Positions 26,214-60,130 of a DNA stretch of 64,000 bases are shown here, in pieces. The stretch is from Escherichia coli. Its GTDB lineage: Bacteria > Pseudomonadota > Gammaproteobacteria > Enterobacterales > Enterobacteriaceae. Each line of letters opens with the position of its first letter. The stretch's first letter is position 1. Where the stretch lies: NCBI RefSeq assembly GCF_024700885.2, contig NZ_CP117014.1; one strand, given 5' to 3'. The position numbers and the translations under genes were made by a program. The notes below the pieces were generated by a model, which was given only the letters and a program-made list of their open reading frames with translations, had not been told where the DNA came from and did no database searches.

Positions 26214-26430
26214 TGCTTTGGCGTTATGACTCCCTACCGCGCTTCGGCTGAAAGTTAATCGTCAAAAGAACCTTCAACGGGAGCCGTTAGCGCGATGGAT
26301 TATGTGCAGTTTGTGATTTCCAAAATAGTGTCAACCACTTTTTGTGGATTTTATTTTTTGACCGAAATTTGGCCTAAATCATGTTGATGTAGTTAATTGT
26401 TTTTATAACATAAAACTTCATTTTGTTTAC

Positions 26431-31842: not shown

Positions 31843-32173
31843 TTTGACACCCCCGACGCGAGTAAAGAATGCAGATTATCGCGTGAGTGGTGGACGACGA
31901 GTGATGGGAAAAGACTGTAGTTGTTCATAGTGTAGTGACTCCTTGCTTTCGGAGCCGCCATCGACTGTTCCACGGTCTGGTGGCGGCGCAATAAAGGCTG
32001 GAACACCGTGAGTCAACGGGGGCTTTTCAGCCACCTATATTGCACCGCCATAGGTATGACGGCGGCAATAATACGAAAAACTAAACAGTTTGTCTCAAAA
32101 AGTTGACCGGTGTGCCAATCGGTAGTGAATGTACATCGGAGAAATTTACAATTCAACTTAAAATGTTAGAAAA

Positions 32174-32752
32174 CTAATTTATCGATTCAATCGCCATCTG
32201 ATACAACGTCATTTCATCGGCATTGTGCCGTATGAAATCTGCTTTTCCGCCTATTTTTCCATCAGCATGAACAGGGACCAGCCAGGGATATTGTTCTCGG
32301 ACCTCGGCTGGCGCTGCGTACTGGTGGTGCCATTTACACAAAGGGAGGACATATTTATGCGCGTTCTCTGCCGTTCTCCCGAAGATATGGTGCAGGGATA
32401 CCACTGGGCTATGTTGCCCGTGAATATGGCAGGCAATGCAGGGGAGAGTACCTATAGCGGTCTGTATCCGGCGTTCATCGGCTGTGAGTGATCTGCCTTT
32501 CAGGCCGCGTGACGTGCGTGTTTTTTTGGGCGGAGCGGATACAGCTTTATCTTTTCTCCGCTGTTCATATTGCTTTGCTTTTTCATTTTTCTTTTGCCGA
32601 TATTCAGGCGATGCGGCCTTTTCTCTCGCTCGCTGCTGCTGGCGTTGAGCTTGTTGAAGGCGCTTTGCCCTTTGTTCCTCTCGCCAGGCCGGGTCAGCCA
32701 ATTTTTGCATGGCTTTTTGTCTCTGTTTCTCCCAATAACTCTGTTTCTGCAT
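32174..32752 (-). CDS. HNH-family endonuclease with long basic disordered N-terminus (P1 Ref-like)
   Basis: ~90 aa K/R/Q-rich N-terminus then CIACHIHG...LHHIF...PLCKWHHQ zinc/HNH motif; motif copies on both flanks. Confidence 0.5.
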   Translation of the reverse strand: MQKQSYWEKQRQKAMQKLADPAWREEQRAKRLQQAQRQQQRAREKAASPEYRQKKNEKAKQYEQRRKDKAVSAPPKKTRTSRGLKGRSLTADERRIQTAIGTLPCIACHIHGQHSPVVSLHHIFGRTAENAHKYVLPLCKWHHQYAAPAEVREQYPWLVPVHADGKIGGKADFIRHNADEMTLYQMAIESIN

Positions 32753-32811: not shown

Positions 32812-32829
32812 CAAAATTGATTTTCTAAC
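32812..32829. promoter_or_regulatory. Palindromic operator-like site GTTAGA-N16-TCTAAC upstream of the Ref-like gene
   Basis: GGTTAGATATTCAAAATTGATTTTCTAACACA read directly. Confidence 0.45.
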
Positions 32830-32869
32830 ACAAAACATTAATATCATCACTGATAAATGTTTGGAGGAC

Positions 32870-33025
32870 ATGATGCTTATAGCTTTAAGTGCGATCCACC
32901 AGCCATCTGTGAATGAGATTGGCCTGTTCTATGTGTTGTTTTTCGGGGCGTTGGCGCTACTTGAGCTTGGTATTGAGCTTTTCGCAGTGCTTATGTTTTG
33001 CGTCACGATTTTGGGGAAATTTTGA
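32870..33025 (+). CDS. Small hydrophobic protein (51 aa)
   Basis: GGAGG RBS; stop overlaps next gene start as TGATG; below track cutoff. Confidence 0.3.
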   Translation: MMLIALSAIHQPSVNEIGLFYVLFFGALALLELGIELFAVLMFCVTILGKF

Positions 33026-33636
33026 TGGTGAAACGTGTTTTGAAAATTTACATCGCGGGGCCGATGACTGGTTATCCAGATTACAACCGTGCTGCGTTTA
33101 ATGCGAAAGCGAGCGAGCTGATGGCTGAAGGGCATATCGTTCTGAATCCAGCTGTGTTACCTGGTGGCCTTTGTCAGAGTGAATACATGGATATTTGCCT
33201 GGCAATGGTGCGTTCTGCTGATGCGATCTACTTGCTCAATCGATGGGAGGAATCGATTGGTGCTCGTGCAGAGCACGCGCTGGCTGAAAAGCTGGGGCTG
33301 ACTGTAATTTATGAGTCACCAACCAACATTGAATGCCAGGTTGCTCCGCATATTTACCGGGAACTGGTCAATGCACTGCGTGATATCGCTGCTGTATATC
33401 ACGGCACAGAACAGCTTCGTGAGCGTTTAGCCCATACCATTTCCTATTACCTGTCTTTATCTCATGAGCACAAGCTCCGCCAGAAGGTAATGATCAAATT
33501 TATCATGAGGTTATCGAAATCCCTGGCAAACGCCGATCCAAAGAATCCATTACCGAAAGAGGCAATGAATTACCTGAAGTCCTGCAACGTTGTTTCTGAA
33601 GATGGCGTTCTTTTGGTTAGAAGGAGTTCTGCGTGA
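33025..33636 (+). CDS. DUF4406-like (nucleoside 2-deoxyribosyltransferase-like) protein with C-terminal extension
   Basis: N-terminal KIYIAGPMTGYPDYN...HIVLNP pattern. Confidence 0.45.
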   Translation: MVKRVLKIYIAGPMTGYPDYNRAAFNAKASELMAEGHIVLNPAVLPGGLCQSEYMDICLAMVRSADAIYLLNRWEESIGARAEHALAEKLGLTVIYESPTNIECQVAPHIYRELVNALRDIAAVYHGTEQLRERLAHTISYYLSLSHEHKLRQKVMIKFIMRLSKSLANADPKNPLPKEAMNYLKSCNVVSEDGVLLVRRSSA

Positions 33637-33950
33637 GCTGGCGGGGATGGGGAAGGGCAGAAATCATGATACTCCGCCAGTGCGCCGGAACTATGACGGT
33701 CGAGAGTATTGGGAAGCTGATCGGTCGTACCGGTGATGCCGTCAGGACTAAAGCGCGGGAGTTGGGGATCAGCATGATTCTGAAAGGAGACTTTCATCCG
33801 TCAGCCAAATTCCGGCAGAGCGATATAGAACTGGCGCGGCAGCTTCATCAGTGTGGTGTTCCCCGCCGTGAGATCGCGGAAAAACTCGAAATGCCCCTGG
33901 GCATGATTAATCAGTACGTTTATTTCGAAAGGAGAGTACATGAAGTCTGA
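33633..33950 (+). CDS. Small putative DNA-binding protein (105 aa)
   Basis: HTH-like segment SIGKLIGRTGDAVRTKARELG. Confidence 0.35.
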   Translation: MSWRGWGRAEIMILRQCAGTMTVESIGKLIGRTGDAVRTKARELGISMILKGDFHPSAKFRQSDIELARQLHQCGVPRREIAEKLEMPLGMINQYVYFERRVHEV

Positions 33951-34443
33951 AGGTTTAACGCCAGCACAACTGGCAGAGCGTAACGCTGAGTATGTAACGG
34001 AAATTTCCCGACTTGAGAAAGCGTGTGCTGCGCTGGCGGCGGAGAATGCGAGACTGAATGCGATATGTGAGGATCGCCGCACGTTCATTATGAATGGCGT
34101 GCAGCTTGGCTTTATCAAGGTGCCAACAGTGGAAATAGATCCAGCTCTCGAAACAATTCGTCTCGCCCTATCACCACAAAAAACCACTCCTGCGACCGAC
34201 ACTTTCCTGGATGAAGTGAAGACTGAAGCACGCAAGGAGGGCGCTTACTTTGTGGCGAACAGGATGCTGGCTGCTTGGGAAGCTGGTTTTATTGATGATA
34301 CTGCGAAGAACGCCGCGGATATTGCCCGGATGATTCTTACCTCTACTGAGTTTATGGCTAATGCGCGGGAAGGCGATTTTGACCGCTCATTCTCTGATGG
34401 CGTTCTCGAAGATATCGCCGAACAGCTTAGAAAAGGAAGGTAA
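33940..34443 (+). CDS. Ea22/Ead-like early-region protein
   Basis: Coiled-coil CAALAAENARLNAICEDRR and C-terminal ...TDTFLDEVKTEARKEG... shared with paralog at 37652. Confidence 0.45.
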   Translation: MKSEGLTPAQLAERNAEYVTEISRLEKACAALAAENARLNAICEDRRTFIMNGVQLGFIKVPTVEIDPALETIRLALSPQKTTPATDTFLDEVKTEARKEGAYFVANRMLAAWEAGFIDDTAKNAADIARMILTSTEFMANAREGDFDRSFSDGVLEDIAEQLRKGR

Positions 34444-34446
34444 ACA

Positions 34447-34695
34447 GTGAGTAATACCGCACGACTACAGCTTGGTTTTTCACCGCTATCAAAAACCATC
34501 GTGTTGGCAAAAATGCGTGACTTAGGGGATGGAACAAAACGTCGTGTTGGCAATGATCGCGGTCGTGATGTAACCAACGAGGCCGCTCAACTCCTCTGGC
34601 ATCTGGTCATGGCAGAAGGCGGTGAAATTAATTGGGAGCTGGATGATGGTTCTCGCATGGTATTGAAGGCAGAAAAGCAGGAACCACCACAGTGA
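34447..34695 (+). CDS. Small early-region protein (82 aa)
   Basis: Tightly packed ORF. Confidence 0.35.
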   Translation: MSNTARLQLGFSPLSKTIVLAKMRDLGDGTKRRVGNDRGRDVTNEAAQLLWHLVMAEGGEINWELDDGSRMVLKAEKQEPPQ

Positions 34696-34967
34696 ATATC
34701 GACACCACGATAACGCTCGATACGGCCCTAAATACCGGTCTGGCACTTCTTGGTTGGCTTTACATCATGTCCCGTACCTGGCGATGGCTGGGTTCCATTT
34801 TCCTAAAAGAGTGGAAAAAACGGCGCAAACAGGAACTACGCCAGAAGGCATTAGAAGCGTTCTATGACGCATTTGAACTTAGCCGCATTGAACCAGGCAC
34901 AACAGCCAGAATAGCGACAAAAGGCGACCTGATGATAGTGATGTTCAGACAGGAGAAAACCAAATGA
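34692..34967 (+). CDS. Small early-region protein (91 aa)
   Basis: 4-nt overlap with neighbours; N-terminal hydrophobic segment. Confidence 0.35.
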   Translation: MNIDTTITLDTALNTGLALLGWLYIMSRTWRWLGSIFLKEWKKRRKQELRQKALEAFYDAFELSRIEPGTTARIATKGDLMIVMFRQEKTK

Positions 34968-35188
34968 CAGAACAGACGATGACAAATCGCGAACTTGTTG
35001 ATGCCGCGATTGAACTTGCTGGCGATTTTTATTCCATGATGGGGTACACGCATCGCCCAGGCTTCAAATATTGGGAGTCTCCGCACCCGCAAGAGCAACG
35101 GGTATTTCAAATGGCCTGCCGCGCTTTTGAAGTTATTCGCGGTTCTGATGTGATGGACGCGGTTGCTGATTTGGAGGATGAAGAGTGA
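34964..35188 (+). CDS. Small early-region protein (74 aa)
   Basis: Translationally coupled ORF. Confidence 0.35.
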   Translation: MTEQTMTNRELVDAAIELAGDFYSMMGYTHRPGFKYWESPHPQEQRVFQMACRAFEVIRGSDVMDAVADLEDEE

Positions 35189-35496
35189 ACACAATTAAAG
35201 AAATGCCGGTAGAACGTGATGAATATGGCTGCTGGACACATCCGGAGTATGAGAAGTTTTGCGCAGGTCGTGAATATATTTCCACTGAGGAATTTGACGC
35301 CTGGATGAAGGAAAATAATCTTCAGTGGACTATTCGCAGTATGGATGAAGATGATTTTGATCTGGACGCAGCTGGTCCCGATATTGCCGCCTGGGAACCG
35401 GAGCGACCAGAGGGTGAAGGCTGGTTTGTTGGCTCTATTCATGACACTGAAGATGGTCCGGTTTGTATCTGGCTGCGTGAGAAGGTTGCCGCATGA
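35185..35496 (+). CDS. Small early-region protein (103 aa)
   Basis: Translationally coupled ORF. Confidence 0.35.
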   Translation: MNTIKEMPVERDEYGCWTHPEYEKFCAGREYISTEEFDAWMKENNLQWTIRSMDEDDFDLDAAGPDIAAWEPERPEGEGWFVGSIHDTEDGPVCIWLREKVAA

Positions 35497-35653
35497 CCCA
35501 GGCTCTGCATGAAGTGAATTTATATAGCCGTATTGATGGTTCTGGCTATAGAAACTAGACACGGGCGCGGTTTTTAGCGGAAATCTGACGCTAATGCAGG
35601 TGAAGGGAGGGCAGCTTAAAGTCTGATCAAATCATTTACGCACTCAAAATCAC

Positions 35654-35681
35654 GTTAGAACATTGATTTTAGTTTTCTAAC
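35654..35681. promoter_or_regulatory. Palindromic operator-like site GTTAGA-N16-TCTAAC
   Basis: CGTTAGAACATTGATTTTAGTTTTCTAACATA read directly, ~45 bp upstream of gene at 35725. Confidence 0.45.
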
Positions 35682-35724
35682 ATATTATTTTACCGATCGG
35701 AACAAAACAGAGTCGGTATGCATT

Positions 35725-36720
35725 ATGAGTGCAATAATCACCCCATATGTCGTAAATGAAACTGGTGTGGCTGTCTTTCCTGTAGATAAGCCCACCAGCA
35801 ATTACATCGGCGCAGGACGCCGTTTTCTTATATCCCCATTGCCGCGTGAACAGGCTGAAAACACCCCTGATGGTGTCGTTGACCTGAATTATTCACTGGT
35901 TGCCAACCAGTCACTGGCACCCTTTTTTCAAAGTGAGCGCGTATTTAACGCGTTAGGTGGTGAGGATTCTCTCGTTCACTGGGTTAGCACCAACATTCAC
36001 GATTGCCAGGTGCATGATAAGCGCGATTGCAGCCACCAGCTAACCACCCATTTCTATAACGGTTCTGCCGTTCGCCTGTGCTGGAAGCATGATGCGGAAT
36101 ACATGATGAAGGGATACGGCAAGCTGGAAGACCAACTGTCACTGAATCGCGCCAACTGGATTATGAACTGGGCTGCCAGCGAGTTAAAACTTCCGCCAGA
36201 TCGCGATCTGAGCATGGTTGAACTCACCTTTTGGGCCATTCGCCGGAATCTTAAAGACGAACTGCCTGATGAAGCTGGTCGCATTGCATTTTGTCAGCCA
36301 AAAACTGAAATCCCTACCGGCACTCTGAAAGAGTCGGATATTACTTGGGAGCATAGTACCCGCGAGCTGGTGGATATTTCCGCAGAGCAGATCGTCAATC
36401 TGTCCGTCGATGAAGATTCTGGCCTCCTATATATGCGCCGTCCAAAAACCTTACTCGGAAAAAGCCCGGCTTATCTCCGGTTTGTGGTGTCTCGCCCGTG
36501 TGTAGGCTGCGGCGGCAAGGTTAATCACCCATTCATGTACCGCGCCCGCTCGTTAAACGAACACGACCGCTGGACTGTTCCTCTTTGCGATGACTGCGCC
36601 AGAAGCGCAGAAAACGATGTCCGGGCATGGGAAAAAGCACATGGCATACGCCTTTACGTAGCCGCTAACCAGCTTTTCGACTTCGCCATTGAGCGCGGAG
36701 TGATCACGTTCAATAACTGA
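35725..36720 (+). CDS. Hypothetical protein with C-terminal Cys-cluster (331 aa)
   Basis: CVGCGG...CDDC near C-terminus. Confidence 0.4.
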   Translation: MSAIITPYVVNETGVAVFPVDKPTSNYIGAGRRFLISPLPREQAENTPDGVVDLNYSLVANQSLAPFFQSERVFNALGGEDSLVHWVSTNIHDCQVHDKRDCSHQLTTHFYNGSAVRLCWKHDAEYMMKGYGKLEDQLSLNRANWIMNWAASELKLPPDRDLSMVELTFWAIRRNLKDELPDEAGRIAFCQPKTEIPTGTLKESDITWEHSTRELVDISAEQIVNLSVDEDSGLLYMRRPKTLLGKSPAYLRFVVSRPCVGCGGKVNHPFMYRARSLNEHDRWTVPLCDDCARSAENDVRAWEKAHGIRLYVAANQLFDFAIERGVITFNN

Positions 36721-36733
36721 TGGGAGCAATGCA

Positions 36734-37027
36734 ATGAGTCAAGGTAATGGTGACGGAGCTGCAAAGTGCAGAATCTCCACTTGTTTGATTAATGACAAAA
36801 AAATAGAACCGTGCGCGGCGTTGGCACAATCTCTGGAGAAGGATGCTGAATACACGACGCGGAAAGGTCTGCTGAAATACAAAATCTATAACCATGAATT
36901 AATTCATTCACAAGACCTGATCATGCTGCGGTCTGGTGAATTTTCTAAATCGCCTATTCGAGTTTCATTTTGCCCATTCTGTGGTGAAAGTCTGAAAACG
37001 TGGGAAGCGGAGGCAACCAGTGAATAA
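36734..37027 (+). CDS. Small protein with C-terminal zinc-ribbon-like CPFCG (97 aa)
   Basis: ORF with Cys pairs. Confidence 0.35.
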   Translation: MSQGNGDGAAKCRISTCLINDKKIEPCAALAQSLEKDAEYTTRKGLLKYKIYNHELIHSQDLIMLRSGEFSKSPIRVSFCPFCGESLKTWEAEATSE

Positions 37028-37664
37028 CCGCTTTTACATGATGTGCTTGCGTGAAACTGTGGGTAATAACGCCTCATTCCATTGCCATAACGGCAATGGT
37101 TACAGTTCTGATATCGATCGCGCTCATATTTACACGCTGGAAGAAGCCCAAAAAGCCTGGAATTGTGGGCGAGATATCGATCAGCCTGTTTGTGCCGATA
37201 GTGTGGATGCAATGGCTGTGTGGCACGTTGATTGCCAGTACATCCCTACAGAAAGCCTGATTGAGTCAGATTGCACTGAGTATGTGGCCTACAAAAAAGG
37301 TAGCTGGAACGGCAACGATGTTTACTGGCTTCAACACGGTGGATTGCCAACAGATGACTTCAGTAAAGCGACCATCTTTAGCTTCGCCAACAAAAACGAA
37401 CCAGGAATAGTTTGGTTGCCATTTTCCATTGCTGATGCAGCAAAGCGCCGGACGTTCAATATCAATAACTTTAACCGCAGAACAATGGTTCAGGGCGCAG
37501 GTTTGGTCATGCCTGACTGGTTGAAAGAGCAGAACAGAAGAAAGAAGTCGCGAAGCGGGAAGGTGCGTTGGAATTGTCCGCATTGCGGAAAAATAACCTG
37601 GCAGTACAGCCCATATGATTTTGAAGGCTGTCGTGATTACAACTGTGAAGGATGGCGAGAATGA
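37020..37664 (+). CDS. Cys-rich hypothetical protein (214 aa)
   Basis: Multiple Cys/His pairs including CPHCG. Confidence 0.35.
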   Translation: MNNRFYMMCLRETVGNNASFHCHNGNGYSSDIDRAHIYTLEEAQKAWNCGRDIDQPVCADSVDAMAVWHVDCQYIPTESLIESDCTEYVAYKKGSWNGNDVYWLQHGGLPTDDFSKATIFSFANKNEPGIVWLPFSIADAAKRRTFNINNFNRRTMVQGAGLVMPDWLKEQNRRKKSRSGKVRWNCPHCGKITWQYSPYDFEGCRDYNCEGWRE

Positions 37665-38374
37665 CAATTGACTATCAGGTACTGCGTGAGGCGGCAGAAA
37701 AGGCAACACCAGACGAATGGGTCGCATTTATTTCGACGGATACTGGTACTTATGCGGTGCACACGCCCGGTGATGAACGATGTGAAGACGTTATCAAATG
37801 GACCGGCTTTGATGGACAGAAAAATGCAGAGAACAACGCTCGTTATGTTGCCGCGTTCAACCCAAAGGTTGCACTGGAGCTTCTTGGTGAAATTAAGCGC
37901 CTGGAGGACACAAATATTGATGCTATGTGTCGAATTGCAGAGCTTGAGACTAATCTCGCGGCGCTGGCGGCGGAGAATGAACTGGCTCGTAAGGCAGTTC
38001 AGGCATTCTGCGATGTTGTTGGCGACAACACCGAGGTTATCGCTGAGGAGGTTGGGCGAGATGGCGTTCTGGTTATTTTGGAGGCCATGAAGGCAACAGG
38101 AAATATGCCAGCCACCGATGCTTTTCTGGCTGAAATTCGTGCGGAAGCACGCAACGAGGGAGTTAACTATACCGCCAGCCGTCTTGCTGCTGCGTTCAAT
38201 CACGGATTTATCAATAAGTCTTTGCGTGAAGTTTTCGACGTTACACGCATGATTTTGTCAGCGAAAGAAGAGTTGGCTAATGAAGCGCATCCGATTGATG
38301 GCCTGTCTGGTGAATATGCGGAGAAATCCCTTGAAGAATGGGCGGAACAGATTCGCAAAGGAGCTGACAAGTGA
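37652..38374 (+). CDS. Ea22/Ead-like early-region protein
   Basis: N-terminal YQVLREAAEKAT and AAFNPKVALELL cassettes shared with 39309 paralog; coiled coil. Confidence 0.45.
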   Translation: MARMTIDYQVLREAAEKATPDEWVAFISTDTGTYAVHTPGDERCEDVIKWTGFDGQKNAENNARYVAAFNPKVALELLGEIKRLEDTNIDAMCRIAELETNLAALAAENELARKAVQAFCDVVGDNTEVIAEEVGRDGVLVILEAMKATGNMPATDAFLAEIRAEARNEGVNYTASRLAAAFNHGFINKSLREVFDVTRMILSAKEELANEAHPIDGLSGEYAEKSLEEWAEQIRKGADK

Positions 38375-38781
38375 AGAAGATGATTTTTATCGCGGCATTG
38401 TTGGTGAATATCCAACAAGTGCATGCTTCAGCAGCTATTGTAGCCTCTACCGCCGCGACTACGGCTGCTGTAGCTGCTGCGAACTCTGCGAATATCGCAA
38501 ACCAACAGGCACAGCGTGCTGCTAATGCATCAGCCAGCGTTCACTCAATCACCATTAAGAGCAGTAAGCAAAATCTGGGATTCATAACGTGCGGCACGCG
38601 TTCTAATGAAGCTGTAGGTTCACTTGGATGTACGGTATATGGGGGTAGTGAGAATAGAGAAATTCCATGGAAAACGTGGCCCGGATACGTTCTTGGCTCG
38701 AAGCTCCCGGCCAGTTATGAAGTAAACGCCGTATCGTTTGATCACTATAACGGCGTGGCAACGGTCTATTTTGCATATTGA
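38371..38781 (+). CDS. Secreted Ala-rich small protein (136 aa)
   Basis: Signal-like N-terminus then low-complexity Ala/Thr run. Confidence 0.35.
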   Translation: MKKMIFIAALLVNIQQVHASAAIVASTAATTAAVAAANSANIANQQAQRAANASASVHSITIKSSKQNLGFITCGTRSNEAVGSLGCTVYGGSENREIPWKTWPGYVLGSKLPASYEVNAVSFDHYNGVATVYFAY

Positions 38782-38788
38782 GGCCCGC

Positions 38789-39322
38789 ATGAAATTCTCC
38801 AAATTTTCTGAGTTGGTGAATCGTATTTTGTTGAATCGTATTTTGTCCAACAACCACAGCCATCGTCGCGATATGGATGTAACGATCGTTGTTCATTCGC
38901 CTGGCAGCATTGGTTCAACACCCTCAGTTGAGGTTCAGTCAATTCACGCTGGTTTTGATTGGGATTCCGGGAAAGTGCTGATTTTCCCAGCACAGCCACT
39001 GACCACTCTAACACCAGAACAGATTACTGATATTACTGATAGTGTGCGCAAAGGTCAGTCCTGGCACGCATATCAGGAATACAAGAAGCATAAAGAGCAG
39101 TTGGAAAAATTATCGATTGAACTTGATACCGCAAAACAGCGCATTGCAGAGCTGGAGAGCAATCGCGCGGCGCTGGCGGCGGAGCATGGTATTCAGATTG
39201 CAATAAATGAACTGCTTGCTCTGGCCCCGCGTCTGGATAAACGAGCGGTGGATGCACTCTCTGTGGCTGTGGAGCACCTGTGTAAACTGATTAAGAAGGA
39301 GGCAGTCAGTGAGCAAAATTAA
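38789..39322 (+). CDS. Ea22-like coiled-coil protein (start refined to ATG 38789)
   Basis: IAELESNRAALAAEHG coiled-coil cassette shared with paralogs. Confidence 0.4.
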   Translation: MKFSKFSELVNRILLNRILSNNHSHRRDMDVTIVVHSPGSIGSTPSVEVQSIHAGFDWDSGKVLIFPAQPLTTLTPEQITDITDSVRKGQSWHAYQEYKKHKEQLEKLSIELDTAKQRIAELESNRAALAAEHGIQIAINELLALAPRLDKRAVDALSVAVEHLCKLIKKEAVSEQN

Positions 39323-40064
39323 TTACCAGGCACTGCGTGAGGCGGCAGAGAAAGCAACGTGGGGAGACTGGGACTCATATAAACCACACCGTGGCGCACG
39401 TGGTTATAAGGTCCGACTAAGTGGTCAGGCCATTGCGCAACACGTTCTGAAAAACAACGCTGAATTTATTGCTGCCTTTAATCCAAAGGTTGCTTTGGCA
39501 TTACTGGATGAACTGGAAAGAAACCAGCAATACATCAAACGCCGCGACCAGAAGAACGAGGATATTGCTCTTACGGTTGGGAAGCTGAGAGTTGAGCTTG
39601 AGGAAGTAAAACAACACGCTGAAGAATTATCCGAAACCAAGGCTGTTCGTAACCAATGGCGGCCAGATATTTGCCCAATAACCGGACGTGCATTTTTCAT
39701 GTGGATTGAGCATCCAACATTGGGAAATGTGCCGACATATGGTGGCCCATTAGATAGTTACACCATTCCAACAAAGGACGGTGACGGTGAGTTTTCATGT
39801 GAGCGTTACGATCATGATTTTGGCGGTTGGGTAGAAAGCGAATGTCTTGGGTTATATCTGATTGATGATAGAGAACAATGCAGGGTCTACGAACTGGAGG
39901 AGCGCGTTAAGGAACTGGATGCTCGGGAAATATCGCTCCCGGAACGTAGCAGCATGCTTCATCGAACAGATTTTCACGATGATTACCAAACGGTAATGGC
40001 ATACAAAGTTTCTGAAGTCATCGATGCAATCCGCGCTACTGGCATTCGCATCAAAGGAGAGTGA
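39309..40064 (+). CDS. Ea22/Ead-like early-region protein
   Basis: N-terminal YQALREAAEKAT / AAFNPKVALALL cassettes. Confidence 0.45.
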   Translation: MSKINYQALREAAEKATWGDWDSYKPHRGARGYKVRLSGQAIAQHVLKNNAEFIAAFNPKVALALLDELERNQQYIKRRDQKNEDIALTVGKLRVELEEVKQHAEELSETKAVRNQWRPDICPITGRAFFMWIEHPTLGNVPTYGGPLDSYTIPTKDGDGEFSCERYDHDFGGWVESECLGLYLIDDREQCRVYELEERVKELDAREISLPERSSMLHRTDFHDDYQTVMAYKVSEVIDAIRATGIRIKGE

Positions 40065-40065
40065 G

Positions 40066-40476
40066 ATGAACGCTATAACCAAAGAACGTATCAAATTATT
40101 CATTAAAAATCCGCTTGATAACGGACTTACTCGTGGCGAACAAATGGAACTGGCACGAATTGCTCTGGCATCGCTGGAAGCAGAGGCAGTTATGTTCTGT
40201 ATATCAGGACAAAATGTAGATTCAGAAGAACATGTATCAACCAGCAAAGCGGTTGTTGATGCCTGGGTTGAAGAATGGAATCAGGTTGACGGAAGTCCTG
40301 GCGAACCACTGTACAAAACTATGCCACTCTACTATCACGCTGCCTTGCCAGCGCCGGTAGTGCCGGATGAAATGTATTGGCAGGATGCGCCAGTTGAAGG
40401 CAGCAGCAAAGCGGCTGCATACGCTACAGGCTGGAACGCCTGCCGCGCCGCTATGCTTCATGGGAAAGGAGAGTGA
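40066..40476 (+). CDS. Small early-region protein sharing N-terminal cassette with 40752 gene
   Basis: ITKERIKLFIKNPLDNGLTRGEQMELARIALASLEA near-duplicated at start of next large gene. Confidence 0.4.
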   Translation: MNAITKERIKLFIKNPLDNGLTRGEQMELARIALASLEAEAVMFCISGQNVDSEEHVSTSKAVVDAWVEEWNQVDGSPGEPLYKTMPLYYHAALPAPVVPDEMYWQDAPVEGSSKAAAYATGWNACRAAMLHGKGE

Positions 40477-40478
40477 TA

Positions 40479-40741
40479 TGGCAACTTTAACAAAAAAAGA
40501 ACGGGCATGGTTGAACGAATTACAGGACGTTCTTGATCGCTGTCCATCACCGAAAAAAATTGGTTTTTACACCATTGGCGATAAAAGCATTTACCTGTAT
40601 GACCTGCGCCGCATGGATGAAATCATGGAGACTCTTGATAATCGTTCGTCGATGGATTGGTGTGTTGCTGTTCATGATATGAATGCAGGGTTTGATGAAA
40701 AGATTTTGTTCCCCTCATCAGTTGAAAGCACTGCGGGTTAA
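40479..40741 (+). CDS. Small early-region protein (87 aa; start refined to ATG 40479)
   Basis: AGGAGAG RBS; track ORF extends upstream in overlap. Confidence 0.35.
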
Positions 40742-40751
40742 GGAGTAACAC

Positions 40752-42272
40752 ATGACCACTATTACCAAAGAACGTATTGAATTGTTCATTAAAAATCCGC
40801 TTGAAAACGGGCTTACCCGTGGTGAACAAATGGAACTGGCACGGATTGCGCTGGCATCGCTGGAAGCAGATCCAGTTAAACGAGTTAACTCAGATCAGAT
40901 GCGCCGAGTCTGCTTAGAAGCTAATCGCCATTTAGATAAATATGACGCGATGGCGAAAGAGGTAAATAAGTTGCTTGGACGCATCGCCCCGCCAGCGCCG
41001 GTAGTGCCGGAAGAAGCAACTCCGGAAAACGTAGAAATGCTCTCTGGCTATGTTTCCACGTACAAATTAACCGATAGCGAGCGCGATATTGCTGCCGAAA
41101 TATGGAACGCCTGCCGCACCGCCATGCTTCAGTCCGGAAACTTTCGGGAAAGCAAGAATTCGTCAACCAATAATTTTCGGGAAATCGCGGAAACGTCAAC
41201 CAACTATCCGGTAATTCCTAGTGAGGTGTTGTCAGCAATCCTGAAGTTTGCCAGAGTTCGTGCCGATTTCGATGATTTTGACGGTGACAGGCGAGGTATC
41301 GGTGATTGTCTGGATGAGGCCGAGCAAGAGCTTATCGTTACCATTAACAAATATGCCAGTCAGTTGGCAGCAGAACCGATAGCGACTAATGACGTTCGAG
41401 AGCAAACAGCCGTTCCGCCAATACAGGCTGATGTCGCGCAAGCAATTGAAAATCTCAAGCAGAAGTTAGTGGAATGCAATCGCTATAACTACTGCGCAGA
41501 TGCAGTTAAAGGCGTAGAGGATGCCAGCCGCGTCTTGGCACTCCAAAATCAAAATATGTCAGCACCGGTAACGCCGGAGGCCATTGAAAACGCAATTGAA
41601 TATATCCGCAGTATCGCTTTTCACATCGATGAAGACGATTACCACGGCAAGCATATTGCGTATTTCATGCGACAAGCATTGGCCTGGCTGGAAGGGCATT
41701 CATGCAGCGACGACAGGCTGGGTAAGGCCGACAATCAACCCGCATCTGGTAACCAGTCTGCCGAATCCAATCGCGGTAATGAGTGGACCGGCAATCCTGA
41801 TATTGATAACGCCATCATCATGCTCGACCGCATAGATACGGCGGAAAGTTGCGATGATGACCGTATTGAGGCCGTTAAGGCTGTGTTGCGTAGACTGGCA
41901 GGCAACTATCCGGATATTCCGGATAGTTCGGTGCCAGCGCCAGGAAAGGGCGTCACCGGTGAACGTATCCGCATTAAGCCGCATGTTTATCGCGAACTGG
42001 TTAACCGTCTCCACGATACAGCGATCAAGTGTGCTGGCACCCAGCAATTACGAGAAAGAATTAGCCGTGTTTTGGGCGACGTTATTACACCAGATCATCA
42101 TAAACAAGCCGAGAAAAGTGGCCTGGAAAGGTGTCGCCTTGAGGCGGCATTAAACATTAAGCCGGGGCATACGCTTGGCATTATTGATGCACTATTGGTT
42201 CATAAGATGGCCAGGGCTTTATTGCCGCTGGTGGCTGAAAAGCATGAGGTGGACCATGCCAACGAAAGCTGA
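40752..42272 (+). CDS. Large early-region protein (506 aa) with Ea22-type N-terminal cassette
   Basis: N-terminus duplicates 40066 gene; internal APPAPVVPEE linker also shared. Confidence 0.4.
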   Translation: MTTITKERIELFIKNPLENGLTRGEQMELARIALASLEADPVKRVNSDQMRRVCLEANRHLDKYDAMAKEVNKLLGRIAPPAPVVPEEATPENVEMLSGYVSTYKLTDSERDIAAEIWNACRTAMLQSGNFRESKNSSTNNFREIAETSTNYPVIPSEVLSAILKFARVRADFDDFDGDRRGIGDCLDEAEQELIVTINKYASQLAAEPIATNDVREQTAVPPIQADVAQAIENLKQKLVECNRYNYCADAVKGVEDASRVLALQNQNMSAPVTPEAIENAIEYIRSIAFHIDEDDYHGKHIAYFMRQALAWLEGHSCSDDRLGKADNQPASGNQSAESNRGNEWTGNPDIDNAIIMLDRIDTAESCDDDRIEAVKAVLRRLAGNYPDIPDSSVPAPGKGVTGERIRIKPHVYRELVNRLHDTAIKCAGTQQLRERISRVLGDVITPDHHKQAEKSGLERCRLEAALNIKPGHTLGIIDALLVHKMARALLPLVAEKHEVDHANES

Positions 42273-42540
42273 ATTACAGGTGCGCGTAGATGAGCTTGAA
42301 AAAGAGAACGCGAGCCTCAAAAAAATGCTGTCGCGGGCGGAAAGGGAATTATCAGGCAAATTATTGCCAGAAGAACTGCCACCAGCAGATATACCTGATC
42401 GAGTGTCCTGGTGGATGAAGTATTTCCGTGCACCGTGGGAGGCGTTTTGGTGCTACGACCATCGCAGATGGTGTGATGAGCTTGATAGCAGTTTCCCCTA
42501 TTTTGCAGAAGGGAACTCTTGCCCTGAATGTAGGCGTTAA
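42256..42540 (+). CDS. Coiled-coil / zinc-ribbon small protein, paralog A
   Basis: C-terminal W..PWE.F.C.DH..W.DELD.SFPYF...CP.C shared with next gene. Confidence 0.4.
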   Translation: MPTKAELQVRVDELEKENASLKKMLSRAERELSGKLLPEELPPADIPDRVSWWMKYFRAPWEAFWCYDHRRWCDELDSSFPYFAEGNSCPECRR

Positions 42541-42845
42541 TGATGACCGGCGAGCTTTATTTTAAAATGGCACGGGAGCGGCGTGTGCATCTGGATCGGA
42601 TATTTCATCTCCAGAAGAGAGTAGAAGAACTGGAACGTCGTCTGAACTGTTATCCTGTTGATATGGTGTCTGCAATACCGCCGATTCCAATAGAAATGCA
42701 GATCCGCCTATGGATGGAAGAATATGGAATGCCGTGGGAGATATTTTTCTGCTTCGACCATAAACAGTGGGTAGATGAGCTGGATAATAGTTTCCCATAT
42801 TTCACAGAGAACACATGCCCAGTATGCAGGAAGAACGGAATATGA
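42540..42845 (+). CDS. Coiled-coil / zinc-ribbon small protein, paralog B
   Basis: Tandem paralog of previous gene. Confidence 0.4.
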   Translation: MMTGELYFKMARERRVHLDRIFHLQKRVEELERRLNCYPVDMVSAIPPIPIEMQIRLWMEEYGMPWEIFFCFDHKQWVDELDNSFPYFTENTCPVCRKNGI

Positions 42846-43366: not shown

Positions 43367-43574
43367 GCATCTCTCCCCTTTGAGGTCACAATTAGTGGCC
43401 TTAAACAATGTGTTTTCTACCTCGATTTAGCCTTTATTATCGTTTTGCATTTCTCTAATCCGGGCAACGAGGTTACGCTGATTCGTTGGTGATGAATAGT
43501 AGCAAAGCGCACAAAATCATCTGCGGTGGTTGATGTACGTAACGCGTTTGCACCAAATGTGTCTCTTTAATGTA

Positions 43575-43613: not shown

Positions 43614-44003
43614 ATGGGCTTCCCTTCTCCTGCGGCGGACTATGTTGAAAGCCGAATTTCTCTTGATCAGCAACTAATCAGGCATCCATCAGCGACATAC
43701 TTCATGCGGGCGGCAGACAGCCATCACCGTGAGGGAATATTGCAGGGTGCTTTGCTGGTGGTTGATTCTTCGCTTACTCCAGTTGATGGTTCGCTGCTTG
43801 TGTGCGCTATGGAGGGAGAATATCGCGTAAAAAGATACCGGAAGTATCCGCGCCAGCACCTGGAGGATTTAAGCACCGGGAAGAAAGAGGCGTTACCAGT
43901 AGATGACGATGGTTACACGGGTAGTAATGCTGTTTTTGGTGTGATCACCCACATTATCAATGACGCCAGGGGCGGTGAATTTGATGATAGTCCTGCTATA
44001 TGA
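43614..44003 (+). CDS. humD: UmuD-prime-like S24 peptidase-fold protein (P1 HumD-like)
   Basis: 129 aa aligning with UmuD C-terminal domain (...LLVVDSS...GEYRVKRY...FGVITHII); SOS box upstream. Confidence 0.65.
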   Translation: MGFPSPAADYVESRISLDQQLIRHPSATYFMRAADSHHREGILQGALLVVDSSLTPVDGSLLVCAMEGEYRVKRYRKYPRQHLEDLSTGKKEALPVDDDGYTGSNAVFGVITHIINDARGGEFDDSPAI

Positions 44004-48927: not shown

Positions 48928-49000
48928 AGCACCCTCCTAAATAGGCGAGGGTACTTTACAGCAAAGGCGTTAATCTAAAAAGATGTGTTAGAAATTTAAT

Positions 49001-50029
49001 TTACGAATCCATCAGGCGGCTATTAGCCCCCACAGACACGCCGCCACGGCGAAGATACCGCATAAGTGTTTCCGGTTTCTTCCAGGTTCCTTCCTGCATG
49101 ATCTCCACCATAGACACCTGCTTTTCAGCCATATCAATAGCGGCCCCGACGCGTGCACTATGCCCGGTCCACGTCCGGTATCTTCCTTTGTTTGGCGTAG
49201 CATCTCTTTTATTCAGCAACACCCAGGCGTCGCTGAATATTTTCTCCATTGCAGGTGCAGTAAGGGGCGTTGTCGTGATCCTGGCCTTATTGCTACGGTG
49301 TATCGGCGGGAACAGCACTGCGTCAGGATGTTCGCGAAGCCCGGAAACATCCAGCCAGTCATTCAGCACAGCGGTAGTGCGACGGGAAAGCACCTTATCA
49401 AGCCCGGCGGCGGTCGTTATTGTCTTCGTGTGTGAAATATGTAGCGTGACAGTGTCACCTGTTTGATCCAGATCTCCTACACGAATACGCGAGATTTCCG
49501 ACATACGCATCAGCGTATTGTATGCAACAAAGAGAAAAGCCCGGTTGCGCAGGTCCACCAGCCGTTCTGACCTGGACAACAGGACGTCGAGCAGTTTCAG
49601 ATCGTCCCACCGAAGCGGTATAGCCTGGCCTGTTCGTTCGCCTTTTTCAGTTGCCGCTTCGCGCCGGATGCGCCGCATAGCCAGAGAAACACTTTTATCA
49701 TCCGAAAGTGGCGGAAGGCCACAATGCGAAAGCAGCATATTCAGCATGGCGTAGTGCTTATCAATGGTGGTCGAAGCCAGATCGGCATCATGCAGCTGAA
49801 GAAAATACTCGCGGGCCATTTCTGGTGAGATCGGAAACCAGGCAAGCTGGCGAGCGTGACACCAGCGCGCCCATGAATGAAACACCAACCGGAGGTCGCG
49901 CAGAGTATTCGGCGCATAAGCCCCCTGGTCATTCATGAACCGCATAAAGTTTTCTGCAGCCTCCTGGTACTCTTTGCCAATGTTGCGCAGAAAACCACCG
50001 GAGCTGCCAGAGATAATTAATTCACTCAT
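49001..50029 (-). CDS. Cre-like tyrosine site-specific recombinase
   Basis: 342 aa collinear with P1 Cre (…WTGHSARVGAA.DMA……IMQ.G.W……Y.R), conserved R/H-x-x-R/W/Y; lox-like site ~150 bp upstream. Confidence 0.8.
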   Translation of the reverse strand: MSELIISGSSGGFLRNIGKEYQEAAENFMRFMNDQGAYAPNTLRDLRLVFHSWARWCHARQLAWFPISPEMAREYFLQLHDADLASTTIDKHYAMLNMLLSHCGLPPLSDDKSVSLAMRRIRREAATEKGERTGQAIPLRWDDLKLLDVLLSRSERLVDLRNRAFLFVAYNTLMRMSEISRIRVGDLDQTGDTVTLHISHTKTITTAAGLDKVLSRRTTAVLNDWLDVSGLREHPDAVLFPPIHRSNKARITTTPLTAPAMEKIFSDAWVLLNKRDATPNKGRYRTWTGHSARVGAAIDMAEKQVSMVEIMQEGTWKKPETLMRYLRRGGVSVGANSRLMDS

Positions 50030-60017: not shown

Positions 60018-60130
60018 TGCTATTCCCGTTACTTTGTTAAATTATTTTTCTAACATATTTTATTAGTTTGATGACAGTATCGAAAGATGCAATAAACAAA
60101 AAACCCGCTAATTGGCGGGTTTTTATGCAA

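Follow-up and report, generated by a model that had tools for sequence, protein, structure and literature searches.

Ea22 of phage lambda and Ead of phage P22 belong to one protein family (Pfam Ead_Ea22, PF13935). In Ea22 an N domain is followed by a coiled coil and then by a C-terminal domain that varies; the proteins of lambda and Shiga toxin phages are known to be tetrameric and pro-lysogenic, and Ea22 is mosaic (PMC10834534, PMC7093339). The mosaic structure of ea22, in which a common N-terminus and coiled coil are followed by unrelated C-terminal domains, one of them DUF551, was published in 2020 and 2024, and the occurrence of two ea22 variants per genome and of a K/RGE tail has also been published (PMC7093339, PMC10834534). 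Related descriptions exist for the EaA/DUF551 proteins of P22, for PmgU of phage P1, whose label 'putative morphogenetic function' is an old assignment, and for Upf88.3 and Upf89.5 of phage P7, the former already annotated as Ead-like.

Here we describe an array of such genes in a 64,000-nucleotide (nt) stretch of Escherichia coli DNA (contig NZ_CP117014.1; hereafter the window). The array has the same layout as the Ea22/Ead proteins of lambda and P22 and the mosaic Ea22 proteins of Shiga toxin (Stx) phages (PF13935; PMC7093339, PMC10834534), with several variants per genome, mosaic blocks and the K/RGE tail. Unlike lambda ea22, the genes are carried by a plasmid prophage (P1/D6 group) and lie between ref and humD, not between xis and exo. 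Two of the end domains, a C-terminal domain that we call CTD_A and the C-terminal domain of gene g14, differ from the solved lambda domain, and g03 and g13 bear the coiled-coil joint and end domains without an Ea22 N domain. The products of g15 and g17 begin like the P22 EaA/DUF551 proteins, and g17 ends in a PmgU-type module instead of DUF551. P1 PmgU and P7 Upf88.3 and Upf89.5 are encoded in the same neighbourhood, the variable region upstream of humD, with exact combinations that differ from element to element.

We consider it likely, at a probability of about 0.8, that the cassettes shared by these genes reflect multi-domain proteins assembled from a common exchangeable pool in a variable accessory operon, with exchange at short joints. 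The array is largely ordinary and extends the published mosaic ea22 picture to another type of element. Details that may be new include the recurrent short intragenic joint used by dozens of partners and the linkage of Ea22, EaA/DUF551, PmgU and DUF4406-tail proteins in one module pool.

Shared cassettes and family assignments

The genes of the array on which the comparison rests are as follows.

33025..33636, + strand: g01, DUF4406 (amino acids (aa) 1-99; Pfam) fused to a 'H(I/V)YRELVN...GT(E/Q)QLRER' module
33322-33489: C-terminal module of g01 (aa 100-155), also in g17; partial PHROG matches
33940..34443, + strand: g03, short N segment, ALAAEN joint and CTD_A allele b (aa 83-167)
37652..38374, + strand: g11, Ead/Ea22 family; N domain aa 1-84, coiled-coil joint 85-114 and helical linker, then a C-terminal part with a 'PATDAFL' box and CTD_A allele a (aa 151-240)
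38371..38781, + strand: g12, 136 aa; hydrophobic signal-peptide-like N-terminus, then an Ala/Asn/Gln-rich stretch
38789..39322, + strand: g13, own N domain aa 1-100, ALAAEH joint and 43-aa tail
39309..40064, + strand: g14, N domain and lambda-type coiled coil aa 1-115, different C-terminal domain 116-251
40066..40476, + strand: g15, EaA-type N-terminal cassette aa 1-47, then a PAPVVP...WNACR segment
40478..40741, + strand: g16, 87 aa; ribosome-binding site, start codon and 'LTKKER' gene-start cassette in common with g15 and g17; matches phrog_1714 over its full length
40752..42272, + strand: g17, 506-aa module chain with a P22-EaA-like part 1-56, PAPVVPEE/WNACR 75-130, two middle modules and a P1-PmgU-like C-terminus 383-494 that includes the module common with g01
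42256..42845, + strand: g18 and g19, tandem paralogues of 43% identity with a coiled-coil N-terminus and a C-terminal CPxCR; both match phrog_3797

The products of 20 window genes were compared all against all by BLASTP in a 20-protein database, and a DNA repeat finder was also applied. A first-pass annotation of the window had reported Ea22/Ead-like genes built from shuffled, short identical cassettes. The motifs that it quoted were all found at the gene starts that it gave, and the six genes that it named were confirmed. The g11 product carries DYQVLREAAEKAT and AAFNPKVALELL, g14 carries NYQALREAAEKAT and AAFNPKVALALL, and g15 and g17 have in common the motif ITKERI(K/E)LFIKNPL(D/E)NGLTRGEQMELARIALASLEA, within a cassette of 139 nt at 86% nucleotide identity (DNA repeat D1). 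The coiled-coil motif reads NRAALAAEH in g13, NLAALAAEN in g11 and ACAALAAEN in g03. Of the two genes to which APPAPVVPEE had been ascribed, g17 has it and g15 reads ALPAPVVPDE; likewise, the description of the cassettes as identical holds for their cores but not elsewhere.

Similarity between pairs of the array was beyond chance, with expect values (E) of 1e-9 to 1e-24 for the main pairs. The g03 and g11 products match over their C-terminal 160 aa at 32% identity (E 8e-21), g11 and g14 over their N-terminal 115 aa (E 4e-13), and g15 and g17 at E 6e-24, with 36 of the first 39 residues equal and divergence after. At the protein level the matches of g13 are weak, covering the coiled coil alone against g11 (E 0.001) and reaching E 0.68 against g03. 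In the DNA, the coiled-coil repeat (D2) is present in three copies with an identical 15-nt stretch, GCGCTGGCGGCGGAG, and 19 nt are identical between the g03 and g11 copies; the other cassettes are covered by DNA repeats D3, D5, D6, D7 and D9. The network also takes in genes beyond those first named, since g01, g16, g18 and g19 join it: the C-terminal half of g01 matches g17 residues 402-455 (E 9e-10, blastp) and g18 matches g19 (E 4e-23, blastp).

The array does not form one paralogous Ea22/Ead family, as had been supposed. Only two of the 20 proteins match Pfam Ead_Ea22, g11 at 5.2e-20 and a second, taken as g14, at 8.8e-30; the match is absent in g03, g13, g15, g17 and all others of the 20 scanned. 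Both proteins have the three-part layout of the family, with an N domain, a long coiled coil and a separate C-terminal domain. The AlphaFold2 (AF2) model of g11 (predicted local distance difference test score (pLDDT) 72.7) has a helix-hairpin-helix at 8-68, one 78-residue helix at 71-148 and a three-helix end domain, and the N-terminus and coiled coil of lambda Ea22 can be aligned with g14. Lambda Ea22 residues 1-84 match g14 at E 1.3e-24 and the last 8 residues are the same (GIRIKGE), making g14, of the 20 products, the nearest homologue of lambda Ea22. Neither gene is in the exo-xis (early-left) location, since both sit between ref and humD/phd-doc, but location is no part of the Pfam definition and the membership of g11 and g14 stands.

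The g15 and g17 products are EaA-like. Residues 1-56 of g17 are 73% identical to residues 1-56 of P22 EaA (tblastn), and the g15/g17 cassette is 98% identical to the 'EaA protein' of phage 689R5, in which the cassette alone bears the EaA annotation. DUF551 (PF04448) had no match in any of the 20 proteins, and many close relatives of g17 end in DUF551. Residues 383-494 of g17, 22% of the protein, are 94.6% identical to the P1 pmgU/pmgT region (tblastn); P7 Upf89.5 covers 76% of g17, and no phage record reaches 80%. There was no Pfam match for g03. In PHROG each protein matches many families, mostly over partial stretches. NCBIfam gave no match for 10 proteins, a PDB sequence search with g11, g14 and g17 gave nothing below E 0.8, and the best hit of a Foldseek search of the g11 model against PDB, at E 3.2, is meaningless. 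Modelling the C-terminal domain by itself gave a result too poor for fold searching (pLDDT 63, predicted template modelling score (pTM) 0.30). The NCBI name 'dTDP-6-deoxy-L-hexose 3-O-methyltransferase' on relatives of g17 (P0270, P0273 and others) had no support from Pfam, NCBIfam or PDB, and looks like a propagated misannotation.

Some features of single genes were noted in passing. For g11, the NCBI Prokaryotic Genome Annotation Pipeline (PGAP) takes the second ATG (37661; MTIDYQ..., 237 aa), and the longer open reading frame (ORF) begins 9 nt upstream (37652; MARMTIDYQ...); neither candidate start codon has a strong ribosome-binding site. A homologue of g13 is labelled 'missing C-terminus' by PGAP. 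At 41139-41203, g17 contains an in-frame 33-nt tandem duplication (NFRESKNSSTN / NFREIAETSTN) that is 78% identical. The conserved C-terminus of g18 and g19, W..PWE.F.C.DH..W.DELD.SFPYF...CP.CR, could be a zinc-binding knuckle, and the g18/g19 copy of one relative carries the PGAP label 'antitoxin PHD'.

To date the cassettes, synonymous divergence (dS) and the ratio of nonsynonymous to synonymous divergence (dN/dS) were calculated between paralogous copies within the window by the Nei-Gojobori method, with the following results for dS.

EaA (ITK) cassette: 0.38
Ea22 N domain: 0.8-1.1
CTD_A: 1.7
AAFNPKVAL stretch: 2.5 (dN/dS 0.08)
g01/g17 module: saturated
g18/g19: saturated

Over the paralogous cassettes dN/dS ranged from 0.08 to 0.68. 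The modules of the array are old domains under purifying selection.

Short joints and re-assortment of modules in relatives

Within g03, g11 and g13, the shared coiled-coil motif coincides with a 19-nt core, GCGCTGGCGGCGGAGAATG, that codes for ALAAEN and has three copies in the window. Breakpoints were defined as endpoints of matches to relatives of at least 200 nt and at least 88% identity, which gave 46 clusters. The copies, with the endpoints of high-scoring segment pairs (HSPs) near them, are the following.

34030..34048, + strand: core copy 1, GCGCTGGCGGCGGAGAATG, in g03; breakpoints of five relatives at 34049-34059
37961..37979, + strand: core copy 2, in g11; HSPs of all lengths end at 37977-37979 in 5 relatives, three of which pass the filter
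39170..39188, + strand: core copy 3, GCGCTGGCGGCGGAGCATG, in g13; breakpoints at 39188 in five relatives

Seventeen of the 46 clusters fell in repeat cassettes within the window, which make up 12% of the region (binomial p 1e-5), and nine fell at gene borders (5% of the region; p 6e-4). Breakpoints also recurred where the EaA cassette ends, in the AAFNPKVAL stretch of g14 and, within g17, at both PAPVVPEE and WNACR. Paired high-identity HSPs that map apart in one relative overlap just across the core, at 34027-34058, 37943-37977 and 39143-39188. When the joints were aligned, an invariant GCGCTGGCGGCGGAG(A/C)ATG stood between unrelated left and right flanks. Ten related loci had 3 left and 6 right flank types in 10 of the 18 possible combinations. 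In 120 viral contigs from IMG/VR, selected for the exact 19-mer, there were 28 left and 45 right types in 65 combinations, and 103 of the 120 ORFs bore modules of the pool. A count of AALAAE codon variants was set aside, as the loci had been chosen for the exact core. In the 150 listed representatives at 50% identity, the limits of homology to g11 cluster at aa 79-90, 85-100, 109-120, 139-156 and 163-180, the same conserved stretches.

A second kind of joint lies at gene boundaries. At 40053..40068 (+ strand) the DNA reads AAA GGA GAG TGA g ATG, so that the K-G-E codons hold the AAGGAG ribosome-binding site of the next gene, and this joint is repeated at 40465 (40465-40480) and at 40739 (DNA repeat D4). 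The g14 and g15 products end in KGE, one base ahead of the next ATG, and the tails of g03 (RKGR; 34432-34449) and g11 (RKGADK; 38355-38373) also carry the AGGA(G/A) of the next gene. The last 24 nt of lambda ea22, its stop codon and 3 nt more are identical to the end of g14 (L002:2845-2875, - strand), where homology stops; the lambda annotation has no gene within ~190 nt after the end of ea22. The K/R-G-E tripeptide at the Ea22 C-terminus has been called 'of unknown significance' (PMC7093339). A simple reading, which may be new, is that the K/RGE tail of Ea22 proteins coincides with the ribosome-binding site of the next gene. Collectively, the junctions show exchange at short conserved sequences. 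The intragenic joints lie at domain borders (the ALAAEN core, AAFNPKVAL, PATDAFL, ITKERI...SLEA and PAPVVP/WNACR), and others lie at gene borders, where the tail codons hold the ribosome-binding site of the next gene.

The window proteins were divided into 34 modules, which served as queries against the + strand ORFs of 11 related loci. Two alleles of CTD_A were distinguished, the g11 type (a) and the g03 type (b). The window has allele b on the N segment of g03 (g03N) and allele a on the Ea22 N domain (Ea22N). In the relatives, g03N bears CTD_A-a in L006, L008 and L010 (96-98% identity), the N domain of g13 (g13N) bears CTD_A-b in L008 (99%), and an Ea22N-type domain bears CTD_A-b in L009 (94%). 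The 43-aa tail of g13 ends an Ea22N plus coiled-coil protein in L006 (L006_7806-8270; 100%). The C-terminal domain of g14 follows N domains of 35% identity in L010 and an Stx2c phage (L012); P7 Upf88.3 has it at 96-100%, behind a largely different N-terminus. D6 orf104 ('pmgU-like') lacks the EaA cassette and corresponds to about the last 290 residues of g17 (aa ~217-506).

Larger blocks were found to move as well. The block 38108-39188, comprising CTD_A-a, g12 and the g13 N-terminus, is 93-97% identical to L006 and L008 but is at a different position there: its neighbours are Ea22N and the g13 tail in the window, and g03N and CTD_A-b in L006 and L008. Each end of the block lies at a copy of the core, and g12 always moves with the whole block. 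Segments 37009-37977 and 39496-40065 are 97-98% identical to the Stx2c phage (L012) and to P7 (L005). The module pool is common to lambdoid (including Stx) prophages and P1/P7 at more than 95% nucleotide identity, which indicates recent exchange.

The same pattern extends to more distant homologues. Full-length-biased listing of g11 homologues, which returns near-identical proteins, was unusable for architecture, and representatives at 50% identity were used instead. About 8 of the 150 listed representatives keep the module order of g11, and there were 42 architecture strings, some of which join the Ea22 and EaA/PmgU groups (for example N-lcc-PAPV-g17m1 and DUF4406-cc-A). The 120 best homologues of g17 fell into 29 architectures. 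A count over 5,426 complete E. coli genomes gave 1,128 with parts of g11 and 95 with the whole gene, 2,095 with parts of g17 and 4 with the whole combination, and 267 with parts of g03 and 57 with the whole gene; the module copies were mostly chromosomal. Many truncated or frameshifted remnants in the relatives are labelled 'incomplete' by PGAP.

Host element, borders and regulation of the operon

The array forms an operon on the + strand at ~33.0 to 43.4 kb, flanked by ref and humD/phd-doc, in which ~20 genes are tightly packed or overlap. Its surroundings are as follows.

32174-32752, - strand: ref, left border of the operon, divergent from g01
43379-43405: terminator-like hairpin which, with a toprim gene, marks the right end of the operon
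43614-44003: humD, followed by phd-doc in the closest plasmid

The closest matches of the region were E. coli plasmids of 87-97 kb, then phage D6, then P7. Identity to pB2C_96 and p702_18_3, plasmids of 95-96 kb, was 99.7% across 6.7 kb, and phage D6 covers 43% of the operon region at 94.7% identity, with P7 covering 24%. The closest plasmid carries parM, glnS, dam, rdgC, baseplate genes, icd/ant, ref, humD, phd-doc, a terminase and tRNAs. The synteny and identity with D6-like plasmids and the presence of both plasmid and phage core genes are those of P1 subgroup 2 (D6-like), and a matching plasmid, NZ_CP066033, is listed as P1g2 in PMC10879196. Because of these best matches (the plasmids, D6 and P7) and the gene content of the closest plasmid, we assign the window on sequence grounds to a D6-like (P1 subgroup 2) phage-plasmid of E. 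coli, the 'P1g2' group of PMC10879196. The operon is syntenic yet differently filled in each relative examined, and the array is a variable accessory operon of this D6-like phage-plasmid.

Two further observations were made in the window. A remnant of a P1 ppp-like (NinI-type) metallophosphoesterase gene lies at 35493-35724, with its first 21 codons intact and a clean 559-nt internal deletion (joint 35555/35556) relative to 7 compared relatives; L013 also lacks the stretch. The 64-kb window also contains 47 Chi octamers (18 GCTGGTGG and 29 on the other strand), ~1 per 1.4 kb, compared to ~2 in random sequence. P1 has been described as Chi-rich.

The divergent ref/g01 intergenic region contains a perfect copy of a 17-mer that is a candidate repressor operator.

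32814..32830, + strand: AAATTGATTTTCTAACA, candidate operator, perfect copy
26394-26410, 32164-32180, 32814-32830, 48986-49002 and 60039-60055: copies of the 17-mer AAATT(G/A)NNTTTCTAACA in the window

These five copies, at no more than 3 mismatches, compare with 0.36 expected, and those that were checked lie between or at the edges of long ORFs. Every D6-group relative has the perfect 17-mer at this ref/g01 position. The motif is conserved in that group, sometimes in overlapping inverted pairs, and P7 lacks it. We regard AAATTGATTTTCTAACA as the candidate operator of a D6-type C1 repressor and candidate control point of the operon. The P1 C1 operator consensus, ATTGCTCTAATAAATTT, has no site in the 64-kb window, and a sigma-70 promoter scan found fewer sites than in shuffled sequence and was uninformative. 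In P7, an annotated C1 operator is located ahead of the homologous operon. Taken with the candidate operator, this makes repressor-controlled early expression of the operon plausible.

Origin and possible function of the array

The pool from which the array proteins are proposed to be assembled would include the Ea22 N domain, coiled-coil segments, CTD_A, the EaA N-terminal cassette, PmgU-type C-terminal modules and the DUF4406-associated module. Homologous recombination across conserved stretches of 20-50 nt would join them, with co-resident paralogues and co-resident phages as partners, and would be driven by RecA/RecBCD or by phage recombinases. The block of CTD_A-a, g12 and g13N may have moved by excision and re-insertion, or by unequal crossing-over, at the direct core repeats. 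About 30 bp is the minimum for Red-beta recombination, to which these stretches come close in length, and homology-driven mosaics mostly exchange small gene fragments rather than modules (PMC3945230). The array resembles such mosaicism in its high-identity blocks bounded by short lower-level homology, its exchange of fragments and its gene-border joints, whereas here one very short intragenic joint is reused by many partners. In contrast to the 84-genome survey of 2014, in which no lambdoid-P1 exchange was seen between functional phages (PMC3945230), the exchange here is recent, at more than 95% identity. In P1-like phage-plasmids, ~30% of genes recombine and gene flow with phages has been documented (PMC10879196).

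The array can also be compared, as an analogy and with no membership proposed, to polymorphic toxins, in that a short motif borders a constant part and exchangeable ends and truncated orphan copies occur. The array differs in having neither toxin/immunity domains nor a secretion apparatus, and its products are small cytoplasmic coiled-coil proteins. In polymorphic toxins the junction motifs are 'VENN' in CdiA and 'PxxxxDPxGL' in Rhs, and truncated 'orphan' modules lie in nearby arrays.

Several other origins of the shared cassettes were weighed. Chance similarity of a low-complexity coiled coil, or a single recent duplication, would fit ALAAEN being short and alanine-rich and the g03-g13 match not being significant, yet the other pairs reach the E values given above, the modules occur in 42 + 29 other architectures, and many elements have the identical DNA core between flanks that are unrelated. 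Because dS runs from 0.4 to saturated and the modules are found in many other combinations in relatives, the cassettes do not stem from one recent duplication. Both explanations are refuted, and with them falls the alternative of one recent nucleotide-level event with no modularity in relatives. The modular recombination proposed in the first-pass annotation is in turn strongly supported, with one change: the sharing is real, but the short cassettes are the joints and the exchanged units are the domains between them. It is unlikely that the array is mostly recombinational debris, that is, fragments under little selection with no coherent function. The 'incomplete' and frameshifted remnants of the relatives, the resemblance of g13 to a truncated chimera and the internally deleted phosphatase gene in the window would all be expected of debris. 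The named window genes are nevertheless intact ORFs with ribosome-binding sites and tight or overlapping junctions, dN/dS of the common modules is well below 1, CTD_A is strongly conserved across 50%-identity clusters, and identical alleles persist in many genomes. For intact, constrained window ORFs, debris is an unlikely description.

The joint core itself invites a more specific suggestion, that the Chi-like core GCTGGCGG (exact Chi, GCTGGTGG, in some alleles) has been selected as a domain-shuffling device, possibly assisted by the Ref nuclease. An identical 19-mer stands between dozens of unrelated flanks, and the three window cores keep their identical 15-nt stretch (19 nt for g03/g11) although nearby synonymous sites differ (proportion of synonymous differences, pS, 0.3-0.46). 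The ALAAEN core is one base off Chi, with exact Chi in L004 (4135), L009 (2815), L010 (9623) and L012 (4955), the window is Chi-rich, and ref adjoins the operon. However, crossovers in a short stretch homogenise the core automatically, which makes selection for recombination unnecessary, and Leu-Val/Ala codons (CTG GYG G) yield Chi-like octamers through codon usage alone; GCTGGCGG is a putative Chi-like site by sequence. A search of the 20 genes with Pfam and a repeat scan found no site-specific recombinase, reverse transcriptase or inverted repeats, and the variation is seen between strains, not within one. The array also lacks the features of programmed rearrangement (shufflon, invertible cassette, diversity-generating retroelement), as its repeats are direct and in frame. 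We consider selection of the core for shuffling improbable. By analogy, the core and lesser joints such as PATDAFL might be a maintained universal coupling through which Ea22-type coiled-coil proteins of plasmid and lambdoid prophages swap N-terminal and C-terminal domains at high frequency, a combinatorial retargeting system comparable to that of polymorphic toxins and a suggestion that we rate as an outside chance; if true, it would make the variable end domains determinants of specificity in conflicts between phage and host or between phages.

Assembly from a common pool by exchange at joints remains our preferred explanation, and the following points count against it. The relatives behind the breakpoint statistics are not independent of one another, and HSPs tend to stop at conserved stretches because of the way BLAST extends them. 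Conservation of the joints could also reflect protein-level constraint on the helix motif, and the scan of viral contigs, which demanded the exact 19-mer, says nothing on joint variability. The recombination mechanism is inferred from junction anatomy, and part of the array may be decaying debris, not working genes. As to function, NCBIfam, PADLOC, the PDB sequence search and Foldseek gave none, the end-domain model being poor, and the pro-lysogenic role may not transfer, as the C-terminal domains of lambda and Stx Ea22 differ and the plasmid prophage does not integrate.

By homology with lambda and Stx Ea22, g11 and g14 would form coiled-coil oligomers whose variable end domains are presented to different partners. 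They would be made on induction or infection from a repressor-controlled promoter and be dispensable for growth. They might modulate the lysis-lysogeny balance or host physiology, which is the weakest step of the explanation; favouring lysogeny is the one experimentally described Ea22 role (PMC7093339). The first-pass annotation had suggested anti-defence or host-takeover functions, for which PADLOC, NCBIfam, PDB, fold comparison and literature gave no support, and nothing spoke against either. An anti-defence or host-takeover locus, in which swappable end domains act as inhibitors or decoys diversified by an arms race, is compatible with assembly from a common pool. The genes are small and fast-assorting and lie in the variable region of a temperate element, combinations are rare and modules common as diversifying selection would give, and the same plasmid type has a Tad2 anti-Thoeris gene elsewhere. 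On the other side, PADLOC (defence systems), NCBIfam and PHROGs gave no functional name for any member, a literature search found no paper linking Ea22 with anti-defence, and the tested Ea22 phenotype is pro-lysogenic alone (PMC7093339). The dN/dS of 0.08-0.68 on the common modules indicates purifying, not positive, selection. We therefore hold an anti-defence role to be doubtful, though worth more weight than either debris or a selected core. A PADLOC CARF/HEPN match of g01 was marginal (E 0.0036) and was judged to be noise.

Between a fifth and two fifths of complete E. coli genomes carry modules of the array genes, Stx prophages included, and P1-group plasmid prophages and lambdoid prophages draw on one gene pool. 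With the domain borders and joints mapped, these proteins can be divided rationally into units for testing. If the end domains are specificity determinants, in lysogeny control or in conflict with defences or phages, the joint map would explain the origin of new specificities.

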